Virus record (IMG/VR): IMGVR_UViG_2597489870_000007 | DNA: 48,718 nt | Reading direction: 5' to 3' (one strand) | Source: a virus | Taxonomy: Duplodnaviria; Heunggongvirae; Uroviricota; Caudoviricetes | Part shown: positions 245 to 48,718 of the stretch, piece after piece | How positions within the stretch are numbered: the stretch's first letter is position 1 | How the letters are laid out: every line of letters starts with the position of its first letter | Notes under the pieces: model-generated | Told to the model about the DNA's origin: nothing | What the model saw: only the letters and a program-made list of their open reading frames with translations | Databases searched by the model: none | Made by a program: the position numbers and the translations under genes

Positions 245-817
245 TCACAGCTCAGGCCATACGATATCCGGGGCTGTATTTATATCAATCCGACTCACTA
301 ATACCCGGTATTTTTTCCAGGAAGATAGCATCGAGACCTCCTCATCAGTTGCCATTTCAAAATTAACAGCATCCTGCAGAATTGTTATGTTATCAGTCGC
401 TTCCTGGATTAATCTTGTCTTTTTCTCTTCCGCCTCCCGGATCCGGAAGAGTTTTTCTGCTTCCGTATCCTTCACCCAGGCTGTGCCGTTCCACTTCTGA
501 AACTCCCCTCCCGGCGACAACCAGGTAACATTTTCCGGTAACGGACCGAGTTCAGAAATAAATAACGCGTCGCCGGAAGCCACGTCATAGACGGTTTTAC
601 CCCGATGGTCTTCAACGAGATGCCACGATGCCTCATCACTGTTGAAAACAGCCACAAAGCCAGCAGGAATATCTGGCGGTGCAATATCGGTACTGTTTGC
701 TGGCAGACCTGTATGAGGTGGAATATATGCGTCACCGTCACCAATAAATTCATTAGTTCCGGCCAGCAGATTATAAATTTTGATGGTTCGTGATTGTTCA
801 CTCATTCTGAATGCCAT
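245..817 (-). CDS. tfa: Tail fiber assembly protein
   Basis: 190-aa ORF starting [24 protein letters not shown], the conserved N-terminus of lambdoid Tfa; directly follows stf. Confidence 0.85.
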
Positions 818-3800
818 TATGCAAGCCTCACAATATAGTTAAATGCGATGTTTTTGACGGTGTTTTCCGCGTTACCAGCAGCGTTAACGGTGATGGTGTG
901 TCCATGTGAGCCAATCGCAACGGAGTGCGTATGAGCACCAATACCGACAGTATGTGTATGCGCCCCAGCACTTGCTGCAGTACCTGATACTGAGTGGGTA
1001 TGCGCGCCAGCAGAATTCGTTGCACCTAAGTGAGTTTGAGCAGAGTTCGACGAAGCTACTCTACCGGAGCTAACGTTAGCATTATCCCCCTGAGATATCG
1101 GATGCGTATGTGCACCTGCTGAAGCTGCTGTTCCGCTAACGCTATGGGTATGCGCACCAGTGTTATTCGTAGATTTAGTTCCATAATCAAACGATGATGT
1201 GTTTTTTGTCCCTAAATCTGTATTTGAAGCACTGGCGCTGTGGGTGTGCGATTTAATGCCGTCCTGTTCCTGAGACAATACGGCACGACCACTGGCGGGC
1301 TTGCCCTTAATCGTCCAGCCACGCATATCAGGGATCACGCCTGACGGATAAGCGGCTGCAAGTTTCGGGTAAGCAGATTTGTCAAAAGTCTGCCCCTGCA
1401 TCAGGGCATAACCAGACGGAACGGTATCTGATGGCCACGGGATTGGTGCGCCGACTGGGTAGCTTTCTGGTGGAAGATTTTTCGAGGTATAAACTTCTGC
1501 CCAGTCTTCCTCAAAACCATAACCGTCTCTTGAAGAACGGTAGAACAGACCACCATTTCTGTAATGCGCCTTCATCTGCAGGGTCCGGCAACTTCCGACT
1601 CCGGTATAGAAGTTAACCAGAATATAGCTGTCGCCAGAGCGGGTGACATTGTAAGCGCCTGATTCGGCATTCCAGGGAACGCCACCATCCGCATCGGCAT
1701 ATGTATCCGTTGCCCTTCTGGCAAAAGCAGCCACATGCGCGGCGGTTAAAGTAATATCTTTTGAACCATCAAACTCAACCCCAGAAACCAGTCTTGGCGT
1801 TTGCAGCTTTGTTGCTGTCAATGCGTTACCGTTCAGACTTGCAGACAGCTTGGTTCCAATAACCAGTTCGCCGGTTGCGTTATCAATAGCAAACGGTCTT
1901 AATGTATTCCATCCACCATAAACATCACCTTGATTGGTAAGCAGCAGGTAAGTTTTAGCGCCATCATTACGCCATAATGCCCCATACTATACTCCCCACC
2001 TATCATTCGAATCTGATTACCACCACGCGCTACAATTTCGTCTGTGGCAAAAAGTTTTTTGCACGACAAGTTATCGTTAACGATTAACGAATGAGACTCA
2101 TAAAAACCACGCCCACTCTTAAAATCAAGGATAACGTCCGCCGCGATACATTCAGTCGCTGGATTTGTTGCCCCAAACTTATAGGTCGTATCATTAACAA
2201 CGAGATCAGCACCAGGTGCGGATATTGACAGGCCATCTTCGATAAACGCAAAAACAGGGAAAGCAGCGCCATCAACATAGAACACAGAGCGCAAATCATC
2301 GCCCTTATTACTCATCATTATTGAGTGGATGGCTCGTTCATTGTTTTGATATTGCCAGAACATTCCATAAGCATAACGCCCCCTGTCAGTCCAGCCACCA
2401 GGCATAACAAATCCGTTAAACTCGCAGTTATTCATCGGATCGCCTGCGGTTCGCGTTGCCGTGGTGATAATGACCCTTGATGCCAGTTCGCTTACTGAGC
2501 CAGCAGAACGCATAACAACAACAGGGTAATATTTTCCAGATGTTGCACCTGCAGGAGCGTTAACCCGCACATAACGCATACCACGCTTATCAGCAAAGTC
2601 TGTTTTACTGACCGCGTTAATGTTGTTCAGGAAGCGTCCCTTATCGGGTATATCAGCGCCGTTCTGGTCTTTCTGCAGACATTTCTCTGCATTGTCATAG
2701 GCTGCTTTTACTGCCTTTGGCGTTGCCGCCAGCGTTTCAGACGTGCTGTTGGTCGCACTGCTGAGCTGTACTATCCCCTTTTTCGTCGTGCTCGCATCCT
2801 CAAGCGCCACGGCGGATGCAATATCCTCTGCCCGTTTTGCCGCTGTCTCGGCGCGCGTTGCCGCGGATTCCGCCGTACTTTTGCTCTGAGCTGCCGCCGT
2901 CGCACTGCCAGCTGCCTCTGTCGCCTTCGTGGATGCCGTCGTGGCGCTGCCCTTTGCTGCTGACGCCTGTCTGGTCGCCTCATCTTTTGAAGCAGACGCA
3001 GATGATGCCGATGACGCCGCCGAACTGGCGGACGATGCGGCAGCCGTTTTTGAGGATTCTGCGCTGGTTTCCGACGCTTTCGCGTTCGTCTCGGATGTCT
3101 TCGCTGCGGAAGCAGACCTCGCTGCTGCGCTGGCCTGTACAGCGGCTTCGCCAGCATTCGTTGTGGCTGTTGAAGCGGACGATGCAGCACTTTCTGCCGA
3201 TTTTCCGGCGGCGGTGGCACTGGCTGAGGCCTGCCCGGCACTTGTTGACGCGGCACTGGCAGACGACGCAGCCGCTGTTTTTGAGCCTGCCGCAGCTGAG
3301 GCGCTCTGTCCCGCTGCCGTTTCAGAAGACCTGGCGTTCGTCTCGGACGTTTTTGCCGCCTTCGCAGAATTTGCTGCCGCCGTTGCCGAGGAAGCTGCGC
3401 TGCTGGCGCTCGAGGCTGCGTTCGTTTCTGATGATTTTGCCGCCTCTTTTGAAGCCGACGCATCCCGTGCTGAAGTGGCTGCTTCTGACGCTTTCGTGGT
3501 CGCAGTGGATGCAGAAGTGGCTGCTGATTGTTGTGACACTGCCGCATTCGTTTCTGACGTTTTCGCCGCACCGGCACTGGTAGCCGCCGCGCTTTTTGAG
3601 GACTCTGCAGCGGCAGCACTTTTTGATGCCTCAGAGGCTTTTGCTGATGCCGTTCCTGCGCTGGAAGACGCTGACTGAGCCGACGACGCGGCCTGTCCGG
3701 CTGACGTGCTGGCTGCACGTGCTGAGCCTGCAGCATCAGTCGCATGGGTTGCCGCCTCACGGGCAGATGTGCTGGCATCACTGGCTGACTTCTTCGCGGC

Positions 3801-4175
3801 TGCCGTGTTCTGTGCCACTGCGGACGCGTTACGCGCCACCTCTTCCACCATCAGTTCAAAACGTCGCAATGCCTCCGGACGGGCATCATCCTCCGTCATG
3901 GCACCGAGAAAATCATTCAGCGTACCGGGTTGAGAATCTTCATACACGGTGATGGTCCCGGCATGTGACGGCGGGAATCCCTCCACCAACAGAATAACGC
4001 TGTACTGACCGTACTCAACGTCCATGCTGTAACGCCCGGCTTCATCCGGATTTTCTGAGGCCAGCGTGTTCACCACCACCGTGGTGCTGTTACGTTTTGC
4101 TTTCAGCTGGATTGTGCAGTTCTGTACCGGTTTTCCTGTGCCGTCTTTCAGTACACCTGAAATCTTTACTGCCAT
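817..4175 (-). pseudogene. stf: Side tail fiber, split into two frames by a 5-bp tandem duplication
   Basis: N-terminal ORF (ATG at 4175, MAVKISGVLKDGTGKPVQNCTIQLKA) stops at 1899; the C-terminal frame is open from 1986 to 817. Removing one copy of ATACT at 1984..1993 joins them as ...[17 protein letters not shown]... into an approximately 1,119-aa protein. Confidence 0.8.
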
Positions 4176-47312: not shown

Positions 47313-47494
47313 TCCTTTTCCTCCTATCCAATGTGCACGTTCATTCGAGTAAATGAAGGCAAGGGGTTACATCTTATTATACCGACCGTGCAAATCCGGC
47401 TTCCTAGCAAGCTACTTTACTTGCCAACTCATAATGTCCGAACTCCGAACAAAGCGGACTGCTAGATTTGATTGCGTTCTAGCTACGCAAAATA

Positions 47495-48718
47495 TCATTT
47501 CGAGCCTGAACGAGTACAAGTAACAATCGATTCAACTCTCTCCCACCATGCCTGGTAGGCTTTACGCTGTTCTTCTAGATAATCACTCTTGTCATAAACT
47601 TGCCATACACCTGGCAGTTTATGACCGAGCATTATTTCAGCAATATGAGGCGCAGTAAGATCAGAAAAGTTTGTTCGTGCTGTTCGTCTCAAATCATGAA
47701 GAGACCAGTGAGGAAATTGATACCCCAAACGCCGCCATGCGTACTGCATTAAATTGTAAGGCAGCGACTGCAATGATGTCCGACCAACTGGTTCCCTGCT
47801 TCCTTCCTTAGTAAAAAGCATATCGGAACCGTTGTTCATAGAGATAACGTATTTTATAAGCTCTTCAACCGGTTCAATAATGGGCCGCTTTAGCGGTTCG
47901 CCTGTTATATCCCCTGTCTTATGTCGTTCTGGTGGTACAGTCCATATTTTATTAATGAAATCAAAATCGTCCACCTTGGCAGTAATTAGCTCTGAACTAC
48001 GGCAACCAAAATGCAGCAATAGTTTAATGAAGGCCCGGTATTTAGGAACCATTCGAGAACCATCGATCGCAGCATAAAGGATTTTAATTTCATCATGTGT
48101 CAGAAACCGTTTCTTCTGACCTTTACGGATATCCATATCTTTACCCGTGATATCCGACAGCGGGCGAGTTTCAATGAGCTTTCTCTTATACGCCCAGACA
48201 TGGGCCTGCTTTGCGTTAATTAGCAATCGGTCTGCTATTGCTGGAGTCTTAGTGCTAAGAGGCTCCAGGACTTCTAACCAATCATGCAATGTAGCTGCAT
48301 CGTGAGGGATATTCCCGATTTTAGAGAACAGGTGCAGCTCAAACGAGCGGAGTATCTGTTCAGAACCTTTTTTATTTTTTACACAATATGCTTCATACCA
48401 AGCACGGATCACAGATTCTACCGTCATGGCTTCAGTAGCTTTACGTTTTTCTGCCAGCTTGACCAATCGTGGATTGCGGTTTGACTCGAGTTCACCACGA
48501 AGACGGATAACTTCTTCTCTGGCCTCTTTTAGTCCAGTTGCCGGGTAAGTTCCGATATCAAGACGCTCACCTTTCCCCGCCCACTGATAACGATATTGGA
48601 ACACTACGCGACCTTTCGGTGATACTCTAACAGACAGGCCATCACGATCGGATTTAACCAAAACCTTATCACGTTCCTTTCCAACGACTGAACGCAACCA
48701 CGCATCAGACAGCGCCAT
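47495..48718 (-). CDS. int: Tyrosine integrase (P4-like family)
   Basis: 407-aa ORF starting MALSDAWLRSVVGKERDKV with catalytic-region motifs (HDLRRT, MLGHKLPGVWQVYDK); start codon is the last three bases of the window, so att lies outside it. Confidence 0.9.
   Translation of the reverse strand: MALSDAWLRSVVGKERDKVLVKSDRDGLSVRVSPKGRVVFQYRYQWAGKGERLDIGTYPATGLKEAREEVIRLRGELESNRNPRLVKLAEKRKATEAMTVESVIRAWYEAYCVKNKKGSEQILRSFELHLFSKIGNIPHDAATLHDWLEVLEPLSTKTPAIADRLLINAKQAHVWAYKRKLIETRPLSDITGKDMDIRKGQKKRFLTHDEIKILYAAIDGSRMVPKYRAFIKLLLHFGCRSSELITAKVDDFDFINKIWTVPPERHKTGDITGEPLKRPIIEPVEELIKYVISMNNGSDMLFTKEGSREPVGRTSLQSLPYNLMQYAWRRLGYQFPHWSLHDLRRTARTNFSDLTAPHIAEIMLGHKLPGVWQVYDKSDYLEEQRKAYQAWWERVESIVTCTRSGSK

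Follow-up and report, generated by a model that had tools for sequence, protein, structure and literature searches.

The lambda-like prophage at prfC in E. coli ETEC H10407 is very probably a freshly crippled phage and not a domesticated one, and the intactness of its defence gene, dsr1, requires no special explanation. The window, by which we mean the whole stretch of 48,718 nucleotides that was analysed, corresponds to the minus strand of the H10407 chromosome (NC_017633.1, 5072386-5121103). A preliminary description of this DNA had reported a lambda-like prophage with broken tail and tail-fibre genes and three lesions, namely a frameshift in stf, an IS66-family element in U and an IS2 element in a KilA-N gene. 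Lambda gene order and protein identities bear out the kinship, and the lesions are real at the level of single bases, with open reading frames restored when they are removed. The case is an ordinary one, and all three lesions are already annotated in RefSeq. The further reading, that the element is domesticated and retained for its cargo, is one that we do not share.

Organization of the prophage

As part of the same explanation, which we hold as a whole with high confidence, the element is a temperate siphovirus genome that joins a lambda-type head, tail and lysis module to an early region of the Ayreon/cdt-I type and was inserted by a tyrosine integrase. The prophage measures ~50.1 kb and lies at the 5' end (first codons) of prfC, whose displaced 5' end is substituted by a phage-supplied copy. 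Most of it falls within the window and both of its ends lie outside, attL (core sequence ATTATTTCTCACCC) ~230 bp past position 48718 and attR ~1.16 kb ahead of position 1; both att cores are present. The acetyltransferase gene at the left edge of the window is a moron within the prophage, attR being still further left. Features apart from the lesions and dsr1 are as follows.

1..234, plus strand: 3' part of a hexapeptide-repeat (serine) acetyltransferase gene (RefSeq; Hexapep Pfam match for the full gene)
245..817, minus strand: tfa, tail fibre assembly protein, 190 aa, intact (RefSeq; identical to the DX6 copy)
4240..4839, minus strand: lom-like outer-membrane protein gene, a moron, intact (RefSeq, lambda comparison)
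4907..14925, minus strand: tail genes J, I, K, L, M, H, T, G and V, full length (RefSeq, lambda comparison)
18032..26393, minus strand: Z, FII, FI, E, D, C, B, W, A and Nu1, intact (RefSeq, lambda comparison)
26480..26610, minus strand: cos region (cosB lambda-like)
27432..28584, minus strand: lysis cassette S (essD), R (rrrD) and Rz with embedded Rz1, intact (RefSeq)
28652..29704, minus strand: orphan type II DNA methyltransferase gene, between Q and S (RefSeq)
30312-31064, minus strand: Q antiterminator, downstream of the IS2 insertion (RefSeq, domain search)
31078-32067, minus strand: DUF968/HNH gene, downstream of the IS2 insertion (RefSeq, domain search)
34240..38765, minus strand: rightward early genes (RefSeq, domain search)
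38856..39530, plus strand: cI-type repressor (YmfK) with S24 autopeptidase domain, intact (RefSeq, domain search)
40199..43088, plus strand: leftward early genes yfdP, yfdQ (DUF2303), yfdR and two DUF551 ORFs (RefSeq, domain search)
43088..43282, plus strand: excisionase, 64 aa, intact (phrog_1553, E=7.7e-36; weak HTH_17 match)
47495..48718, minus strand: tyrosine integrase int, 407 aa, intact, three integrase domains (RefSeq, domain search)

The late region follows phage lambda closely. Gene order from Nu1 to tfa is identical, protein lengths are equal in 16 of 22 genes, and identities range from 75 to 99.5% (lom, 44%). The tail proteins J to V (75-99% identity) are free of internal stops, as are the head, packaging and head-tail joining proteins from Z to Nu1 (86-99.5%, equal lengths). 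Also in common with lambda are the G-T slippery site (heptamer GGGAAAG, located ~13771), an Rz1 lipobox reading frame within Rz, and the cosB sequence. The cosN 12-mer at 26571-26582, GGGCGGAAGGCG, is a variant that differs from the lambda GGGCGGCGACCT at 5 of 12 positions and is also found in the deposited phage PhiR46_1; the structural half as a whole is ~96-97% identical to the deposited phages PhiR34_1, Kati and mEp332. In contrast, the early, immunity and replication region does not resemble that of lambda, homologues of N, O/P and exo/bet/gam are absent, and the integration site is prfC instead of attB between gal and bio.

That early half belongs instead with Ayreon (MF807953) and the cdt-I converting phage (NC_009514), whose xis-to-Rz region is 96.8-97.7% identical over 75-80% (for Ayreon against the H10407 early region, 97.7% across 80% of the length). 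Both share the same int type, the cI/cro/cII-like set, an O-like replication gene, an intact 269-aa KilA-N gene, DUF968 and Q, and both are without IS elements. The rightward early genes, in the same order as in Ayreon, comprise RusA, a LexA-DBD protein, a Dam-type methylase, a PerC-like protein, an O-like replication initiator (36093-36911), a 78-aa ORF, the Ash region with C4 and IsrK RNAs, the cII-like YmfL and the Cro-like YmfT. Ayreon differs in its head/terminase module, in having no Dam gene, and in carrying beside int a 729-aa gene of unknown function that is not dsr1.

The RefSeq/PGAP pseudogene calls cover the same three genes, U, KilA-N and stf, and all other phage genes are full length. 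A 206-aa ORF at 42468-43088, which PGAP gives as two pseudogene pieces, is a single ORF both here and in Ayreon. The 64-aa excisionase is absent from the RefSeq/PGAP annotation. Siblings of the prophage have the same protein accession for the cI-type repressor. The genes previously listed as intact, namely cI, int, the AlpA/Xis-like gene and the lysis, head and SIR2 genes, are indeed intact.

The three lesions

817..4175, minus strand: stf, side tail fibre gene, frameshifted pseudogene (PGAP 'frameshifted')
1984..1993, minus strand: stf lesion, 5-bp tandem duplication AGTAT AGTAT on the coding strand (alignment)
14933..15059, minus strand: 3' fragment of the tail terminator gene U (RefSeq, junction comparison)
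15060..17758, plus strand: ISCro1, IS66 family (tnpA, tnpB, transposase gene), 2,699 bp (RefSeq, sequence comparison)
17759..18035, minus strand: 5' fragment of U, 92 native codons (junction comparison, translation)
32075..32816, minus strand: 3' part of the KilA-N gene (RefSeq, junction comparison)
32817..34147, minus strand: IS2-type element, IS3 family, 1,331 bp (RefSeq, sequence comparison)
34148..34220, minus strand: 5' part of the KilA-N gene, 25 native codons (RefSeq, junction comparison, translation)

These lesions are not equivalent, and that in U alone is likely fatal to the virus. The ISCro1 copy, 99.85-99.93% identical to copies in six other genomes, is bordered by the 8-bp direct repeat GGATATCG (15052-15059 and 17759-17766). 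With the element and one repeat removed, U encodes a 131-aa protein identical to lambda U at 130 of 131 residues; as sequenced, it encodes 92 native and 36 IS-encoded residues. In classical lambda genetics, U is a structural component needed for head-tail joining. The gpU protein forms a hexameric ring that links the tail tube with gpFII (PMC10721106). Loss of the C-terminal 39 residues would be expected to prevent proper tail termination and head-tail joining, so that induction is predicted to yield DNA-filled heads and aberrant tails and no plaque-forming particles. By analogy with lambda, the U insertion is the only one of the three that should stop the production of infectious particles.

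Deletion of 5 nt from stf gives a stop-free ORF of 1,117 aa, compared with a current product of 758 aa, and the duplication is missing from the intact stf of O177:H21 and DX6. In lambda, one base is deleted from an stf gene of 774 codons. Here it is a 5-bp duplication, putatively due to slippage, at codon ~729 of a 1,117-codon gene, and the C-terminal receptor-binding part differs. Lambda PaPa bears its stf frameshift without a drop in plaque number (PMC12617516), and the frameshift is described as removing the side tail fibres while J-mediated infection stays (Hendrix and Duda 1992, as cited in PMC12617516). The H10407 lesion would similarly cost the side fibres and slow adsorption, and nothing more.

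The IS2-type element, 96.2% identical to an annotated IS2 of strain PK6, is bordered by the 5-bp repeat GATCG (32812-32816 and 34148-34152). Without it, the KilA-N gene encodes 269 aa, as in siblings and Ayreon; as sequenced, just 25 native residues are left. To our knowledge, this gene has no essential role. The transposase is oriented as the phage rightward operon, and insertion in this nin-like region may exert polarity on the downstream Q, which could lower the lethality of the prophage.

Lesion junctions were searched in 5,426 complete E. coli genomes, a comparison of relatives that the preliminary description had proposed. All three are confined to H10407 and the SEC470 record, which equals H10407 in length, is 100% identical to it and is probably not an independent sequence; for stf, 1,375 records have the segment without the duplication. 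Since the lesions are private and their target-site duplications perfect, they look recent.

Domestication and other readings

43485..47312, minus strand: dsr1, defence-associated sirtuin 1, 1,275 aa, intact (PADLOC Dsr1 model)

The SIR2 gene, described earlier as an intact defence-like cargo, is the known anti-phage sirtuin Dsr1 at full length, as judged from its sequence: it scores 2,729.8 bits against the PADLOC Dsr1 model along all 1275 positions (1-1275), has a SIR2_2 domain at residues 123-269, and is identical at 1,274 of 1,275 residues to EcDsr1 (WP_029488749.1), a protein that has been studied by experiment, with the N-terminal SIR2 domain in common. The single substitution, L14F, is private to H10407, and the activity of this allele is predicted. 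DSR1 depletes NAD+ (bioRxiv 10.1101/2021.12.14.472415), and in the near-identical EcDsr1 the major capsid protein of Drexlerviridae phages activates a C-terminal sensor (PMC13581612). The H10407 protein would be a single-gene defence system whose SIR2 NADase effector is N-terminal and whose sensor is C-terminal. The gene sits in the variable slot of the lineage between int and xis, shares its direction of transcription with int and points away from the lytic operons, and it should go on protecting the lysogen. The int-dsr1 pair is found in 72 genomes, and the integrase occurs with other neighbours in ~700.

Could a disarmed prophage have been kept because Dsr1 benefits the host (as Lom, the methylases and the acetyltransferase perhaps also do), with its virion genes unselected? 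We regard this as unlikely. It would account for lesions that strike phage functions and leave dsr1, int and cI whole, and relatives can be cited for it. Nine of the 72 int-dsr1 loci were inspected, and in four of these an IS or frameshift lies in U, H, R or K with dsr1 whole: besides the U insertion of H10407, there is ISCro1 in H of the O177:H21 sibling (together with ISVsa5 in one of its early genes), IS2 in the PK6 endolysin gene, and a pair of frameshifts in K and H of DX6, which may well be sequencing errors. In SCEC020001, the same element is cut to ~17 kb and keeps int, dsr1, early-left genes, cI, cro, lom, stf and tfa. However, the H10407 lesions are confined to one strain with target duplications still perfect, and three siblings (OX030701, FDAARGOS_1286 and DG341-1) carry the dsr1 prophage at the same prfC site with essential phage genes free of lesions. 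Every host-killing function is retained (LexA-type repressor, replication, Q, holin, endolysin and spanins), and the main cost of the prophage is not removed. There is no decay beyond the three lesions: among 29 private SNPs none is a nonsense mutation, and those outside one recombinant patch are 9 nonsynonymous and 8 synonymous, a ratio that does not point to selection having been relaxed on phage genes in particular; one private nonsynonymous change falls in dsr1 itself. Moreover, dsr1 makes up ~8% of the prophage and would be missed by three random hits with a probability of ~0.77, so its sparing is not beyond chance; in at least one genome, H86, it is itself truncated, going by coverage and annotation only. 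The K-12 cryptic prophages (DLP12, Rac, Qin, e14 and CPS-53), from which the gene names ymfK/T/L, yfdN-R, essD, rrrD and nohD used here derive, are likewise lambdoid and inactivated via IS, frameshift or deletion. They have lost most of their genome and are fixed in their lineage, whereas the H10407 prophage has lost practically no gene and its lesions are confined to the strain.

It is more improbable still that the phage remains functional, with gpU supplied in trans, or U repaired by recombination, from another H10407 lambdoid prophage, and with stf and KilA-N dispensable. The structural half of the window has 15 matching places in the H10407 chromosome, and other lambda-type tail modules may thus be present; lambdoid phages reportedly take up DNA readily from resident defective prophages; and ~50.1 kb, both IS included, is inside the lambda packaging range. 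The dispensability of stf (PMC12617516) also fits. However, trans-complemented progeny would keep the ISCro1-disrupted U and form no plaques on a naive host, and recombinational rescue is rare. Finally, an assembly or sequencing error behind at least one lesion, conceivable given that apparently one independent assembly has them and that DX6 may contain such errors, is exceedingly improbable in view of the exact, family-typical target duplications (8 bp and 5 bp) and complete ends of both IS and of a 5-bp tandem duplication in non-homopolymeric sequence, which is atypical for sequencing error.

In the favoured reading of a freshly crippled prophage, the resident copy would have been hit by three independent, recent and strain-private mutations, one each by ISCro1, the IS2-type element and 5-bp slippage, all of them products of the mutational machinery of H10407 itself. 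With int, xis and both att cores present, repressor cleavage, excision, replication and lysis should still function, and the prophage should therefore stay inducible and host-lethal; these expectations, like that of non-infectivity, draw on lambda genetics. The three siblings with dsr1 and unbroken essential phage genes indicate that Dsr1 is the cargo of an apparently active phage lineage. The ~17-kb element of SCEC020001 indicates that cargo-keeping remnants of this phage exist elsewhere, and selection for cargo is conceivable in general.

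Integration site and lesions of the H10407 prophage

The window is 100% identical to positions 5072386-5121103 (minus strand) of the chromosome of the E. coli ETEC reference strain H10407 (NC_017633.1); a second record, SEC470, has the same length and sequence and is probably not independent of H10407. As annotated in RefSeq across the region and the DNA on either side, the element is a lambdoid prophage with yjjG and prfC as its neighbours, and prfC is a known integration site of lambdoid phages. The prophage spans about 50.1 kb (record 5072142-5122261), including 4,043 bp of IS DNA plus duplications, and overruns the window by about 230 bp at the right end and about 1.16 kb at the left end. 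A 14-bp direct repeat, ATTATTTCTCACCC, is common to both junctions (record 5072142-5072155 and 5122248-5122261) and forms the att cores. The first 22 native codons of prfC adjoin yjjG, and prfC itself is fused to a replacement 5' end from the phage. Besides att cores at both ends, the gene set for excision includes a three-domain integrase and the following gene, whose description as Xis-like in the preliminary description was borne out:

43088-43282 (+), excisionase, 64 aa, matching phrog_1553 (E=8e-36)

RefSeq annotates this gene neither in H10407 nor in any of the siblings inspected (a sibling being the same dsr1 prophage at the same prfC site in another strain).

Three lesions interrupt genes of the element:

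15060-17758, ISCro1 (IS66 family), 2,699 bp, with three ORFs (tnpA/tnpB/transposase), splitting the tail-terminator gene U
32817-34147, IS2-type element, 1,331 bp, with the 5-bp target duplication GATCG, splitting the KilA-N gene
1984-1993, 5-bp duplication in stf, the coding strand reading GGGG-AGTAT-AGTAT-GGGG

All three had been claimed from the sequence alone, and they proved real and clean, with junctions defined to the base, reading frames restored on removal, and RefSeq/PGAP pseudogene flags on the same three genes (U, the KilA-N gene and stf).

The element in U has the length (about 2.7 kb) and gene set of IS66/ISCro1, ends with the GTAA terminal repeats of the IS66 family (GTAACCGG.../GTAAGCGA...) and an 8-bp target duplication, GGATATCG, on both sides; its identity to annotated ISCro1 copies is 99.85% or more. 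After in silico excision, U encodes 131 aa, 130/131 of them identical to lambda U, whereas the unrepaired gene encodes 92 native and 36 IS-encoded residues, with the loss of residues 93-131. U is essential in classical lambda genetics, and without functional gpU, tails are neither terminated nor joined to heads. In structural terms, gpU caps the tail tube as a hexameric ring, which docks onto gpFII, and the fold involves all 131 residues (PMC10721106). By analogy with lambda, only the disruption of U, of the three lesions, should prevent infectious particles from forming, and it is through U that the prophage has an essential particle gene disrupted and can be classed as defective, the essentiality being taken from lambda genetics.

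The KilA-N insertion carries the marks of IS2 (IS3 family) in its length, its target duplication and its PGAP annotation as "IS3 family transposase, programmed frameshift"; at 96.2% identity to annotated IS2, it is an isoform rather than the canonical copy. Only 25 native residues are encoded by the unrepaired gene, and removal of the element restores a 269-aa protein, as found intact in siblings and in Escherichia phage Ayreon, that matches phrog_129 ("transcriptional regulator"). We know of no essential role for this protein, and the insertion matters only if IS2 exerts polarity on DUF968 and Q, which lie downstream of it.

In stf, alignment shows a single AGTAT in intact relatives; without the extra 5 bases the gene is an unbroken 1,117 codons, and the unrepaired product ends after 758 residues. 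An stf frameshift also sets laboratory lambda apart from Ur-lambda, where it slows adsorption 10-30-fold and leaves plaque number unchanged (PMC12617516). The tail and tail-fibre defect claimed in the preliminary description thus stands insofar as the lesions in U and stf are real, but these cannot be treated as equivalent in effect, stf having been shown to be dispensable in lambda.

Intact genes and comparison with lambda and Ayreon

Apart from U, the late proteins from Nu1 to Tfa (n=21) are full length and have no internal stops. The lambda-type virion module (Nu1-A-W-B-C-D-E-FI-FII-Z-U-V-G-T-H-M-L-K-I-J) is collinear with and homologous to that of lambda, the late proteins sharing 75-99.5% identity with their lambda counterparts (Lom, 44%), and deposited phages such as PhiR34_1, Kati and mEp332 are 96-97% identical to the structural half. 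The programmed -1 frameshift heptamer GGGAAAG lies at about 13771, near the end of G at the G/T junction, and an Rz1 lipoprotein reading frame was found. Both int and cI, with their expected domains, and the lysis and head genes are as intact as first described, and the genes predicted to kill the host form a full set: cI with an S24 domain, an O-like replication gene, Q, S, R and Rz/Rz1.

The early region resembles that of Ayreon, a phage of K-12, with 97.7% identity over 80% of its length and the same gene order from xis through Rz; that of the cdt-I phage is similarly close. The replication module is unusual in having one O-like/DnaD-like initiator. Because they are common to Ayreon, neither this single-initiator replication nor the absent N homologue nor the annotation pieces at 42468-43088 were counted as defects. 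A hidden defect through an absent helicase loader or N was rejected, as Ayreon has the same replication and regulatory genes. The PGAP pseudogene pieces "DUF551" and "hypothetical" (42468-43088) were likewise rejected as further lesions and regarded as annotation noise; the interval is one unbroken 206-aa ORF, the CDS that Ayreon has here matches it in length and position, and PGAP calls these two pieces in all siblings.

The cos site was weighed as a fourth lesion. Both cosN and cosB are recognizable upstream of Nu1, cosB being near-identical to that of lambda. The cosN 12-mer at 26571-26582 (-) is GGGCGGAAGGCG, compared with GGGCGGCGACCT in lambda, with five changes in the right half, and one search of phage records returned none that aligned through the 12-mer. 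However, all siblings and the deposited phage PhiR46_1 carry the identical sequence, and the candidate was therefore rejected in favor of a natural variant, which is presumably functional. The stretch from the cosQ-like GGGTCCT to cosN also differs from that of lambda and is 1 nt shorter. To our knowledge, a second cosN type for lambda-like terminases has not been described.

Several further features were observed in this part of the element:

37425-37512 (-), C4 antisense RNA, Rfam gathering-level match (82 bits)
37537-37613 (-), IsrK Hfq-binding RNA, Rfam gathering-level match (64 bits)
26731-27051 (+), 106-aa gene on the opposite strand, in a moron position between Rz and cos
28652-29704 (-), orphan DNA methyltransferase, 350 aa, type II-like, between Q and S
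34949-35602 (-), orphan DNA methyltransferase, Dam-like N6-adenine

Both RNAs lie within a 278-aa ORF (37137-37973), and both are upstream of the PGAP "ash family protein". Their presence suggests a secondary immunity/antirepressor control module resembling P1 immI or that of Gifsy-1, and the ORF, labeled "immunity region" in Ayreon, is probably not all coding. The 106-aa gene is found in siblings (WP_000025002.1) and had no match in Pfam, PHROG or PADLOC. The Dam-like methylase has a private P16L change in H10407.

The Dsr1 cargo and the question of domestication

The cargo gene, which had been described as an intact SIR2 gene, was confirmed as such and is dsr1: its product matches the PADLOC Dsr1 model PDLC02183 end to end (2,729.8 bits, covering positions 1-1275 of 1275), and its N-terminal part contains a SIR2 domain (PF13289 SIR2_2, residues 123-269). 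The protein differs from EcDsr1 (WP_029488749.1) by one residue, L14F, and this change (window 47273, dsr1 codon 14) is private to H10407 relative to six siblings and the experimentally used EcDsr1. A 2026 Nature paper that used EcDsr1 reported defence against a few members of the Drexlerviridae and found that EcDsr1-mediated cell death is set off by the major capsid protein of the phage (PMC13581612). With a DSR1 homologue expressed in B. subtilis, infection led to NAD+ depletion (bioRxiv 10.1101/2021.12.14.472415).

Located between int and xis, dsr1 is transcribed away from the lytic operons, as int is, and its place in Ayreon is taken by an unrelated gene of 729 aa. The int-dsr1 pair occurs in 72 of 5,426 complete E. 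coli genomes and the integrase has other neighbours in about 700, so that the int-xis slot is a variable cargo position of a phage family. In the sibling from strain PK6 (NZ_CP042588.1; positions 295-2194 of locus L008), a SLATT-domain gene and a reverse-transcriptase gene, which look like a defence-like pair, replace the acetyltransferase moron. This swap, at the tail-fibre-distal end, shows that cargo of the phage family varies at a second position as well, adjacent to attR.

The preliminary description had gone further, proposing a domesticated prophage that is damaged in its phage genes and kept for its defence cargo, and had called for comparison with closely related genomes. That comparison, made with junction-spanning queries against 5,426 complete E. 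coli genomes only, found all three lesions to be strain-specific. The IS66/U junction gave single-piece full-length matches only in H10407 and SEC470, the IS2/KilA-N junction was covered in these 2 records only, and the stf duplication was present at 100% in 2 records, the segment occurring without it in 1,375. The lesions are thus confined to H10407 and the identical SEC470 rather than shared by descent, and the genes for induction, replication and lysis appear intact, so that host killing would be retained; on both counts the proposal of domestication was not upheld.

Including H10407, nine of the 72 int-dsr1 loci were inspected, and the eight other strains were found in the following states:

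OX030701, no lesion in essential phage genes
FDAARGOS_1286, no lesion in essential phage genes
DG341-1, no lesion in essential phage genes
O177:H21, ISCro1 in the tape-measure gene H and ISVsa5 in an early gene
PK6, IS2 in the endolysin gene
DX6, K and H frameshifted, which may be sequencing errors
OkiPb01713, dsr1 itself seemingly truncated, as judged from coverage and annotation only
SCEC020001, remnant of about 17 kb (locus L009, NZ_CP032426.1 4154625-4171538) in which a deletion joins cro to lom

The comparison bearing on whether cargo is kept while the phage decays sets one remnant with dsr1, that of SCEC020001, beside three siblings without a lesion in an essential gene. The remnant holds int, dsr1, the leftward early genes, cI, cro, lom, stf and tfa, and is a genuine remnant of this phage that has kept its cargo.

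Point mutations were also counted. Comparison with six siblings gave 29 SNPs private to H10407; 12 are clustered in stf/lom, a cluster that is likely recombinational. Outside this patch there are nine nonsynonymous changes (one of them in dsr1), eight synonymous and no nonsense changes, which are too few to separate gene classes; one U site was set by hand to synonymous because its codon phase crosses the IS junction.

Chance could also account for the lesion pattern. As dsr1 makes up about 8% of the element, three random hits would spare it with a probability of about 0.77, and since the tail region occupies about 34% of the length, at least two of three random hits would be expected there about 27% of the time. 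The pattern with its spared cargo is statistically unremarkable: lesions in phage genes alongside an intact defence gene are a chance outcome in a young defective prophage, and domestication should not be inferred from such a pattern without population data.

ISCro1 in late operons and implications for H10407

In different E. coli strains, we observed at least eight independent insertions of ISCro1 in lambda-type late operons, with copies at least 99.85% identical. Four of the eight are no more than about 150 bp from the U/V junction, another two fall at the D/E junction, and H and U (window) have one each:

Window, 14912-15059 and the insertion in U at 15060-17758
U/V junction, loci L010, L011 and L012 from other E. 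coli genomes
H, locus L003 12391-15089
D/E junction, loci L017 17467-20165 and L018 17428-20126

Each insertion has its own 8-bp duplication (those listed are GGATATCG, TCACATTT, TTTGGTAC, TCATCGTC, TCTCCAGC, GGGCGGTT and AAAAAAGC). All eight are antiparallel to late transcription and several are at gene boundaries (U/V, D/E), but half of them were found with an orientation-biased query, which makes the orientation bias only partly real evidence. We consider it unlikely that ISCro1 has a preference, with a single fixed orientation, for gene boundaries within lambda-type late operons. If it did, and the pattern did not stem from sampling, this IS66-family element would repeatedly disarm lambdoid virion genes in a semi-targeted way and, taken with remnants like that of SCEC020001, such insertions could be a first step toward int-dsr1-cI modules left as host defence islands.

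The simplest account of the H10407 element is that an active temperate phage with Dsr1 as a moron lysogenised an ancestor of the strain and that the prophage was recently hit by the abundant IS copies of its host. The junction queries found 14 places matching ISCro1 and 7 matching IS2 in the H10407 chromosome. In lambdoid phages, SOS induction leads to cleavage of the LexA-like S24 repressor, after which Int and Xis excise the element; Q then switches on the late genes, and S, R and Rz/Rz1 lyse the cell. On induction, H10407 would be expected to lyse and to produce DNA-filled heads, without any plaque formers. In the lysogen, Dsr1 would be expressed and would abort infection by phages with a recognised capsid protein.

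The locus, its pseudogenes and dsr1 were already in RefSeq, EcDsr1 has been experimentally characterised, and IS-inactivated lambdoid prophages are commonplace; what this analysis establishes is the integration architecture, the lesions, the intact gene set and the identity of Dsr1, and its importance beyond bookkeeping is small. For users of H10407, the prophage at prfC is predicted to be inducible and to kill its host but not to be infectious, with U as the likely sole block, and the near-canonical EcDsr1 that it carries may shape the susceptibility of the strain to T1-like (Drexlerviridae) phages.
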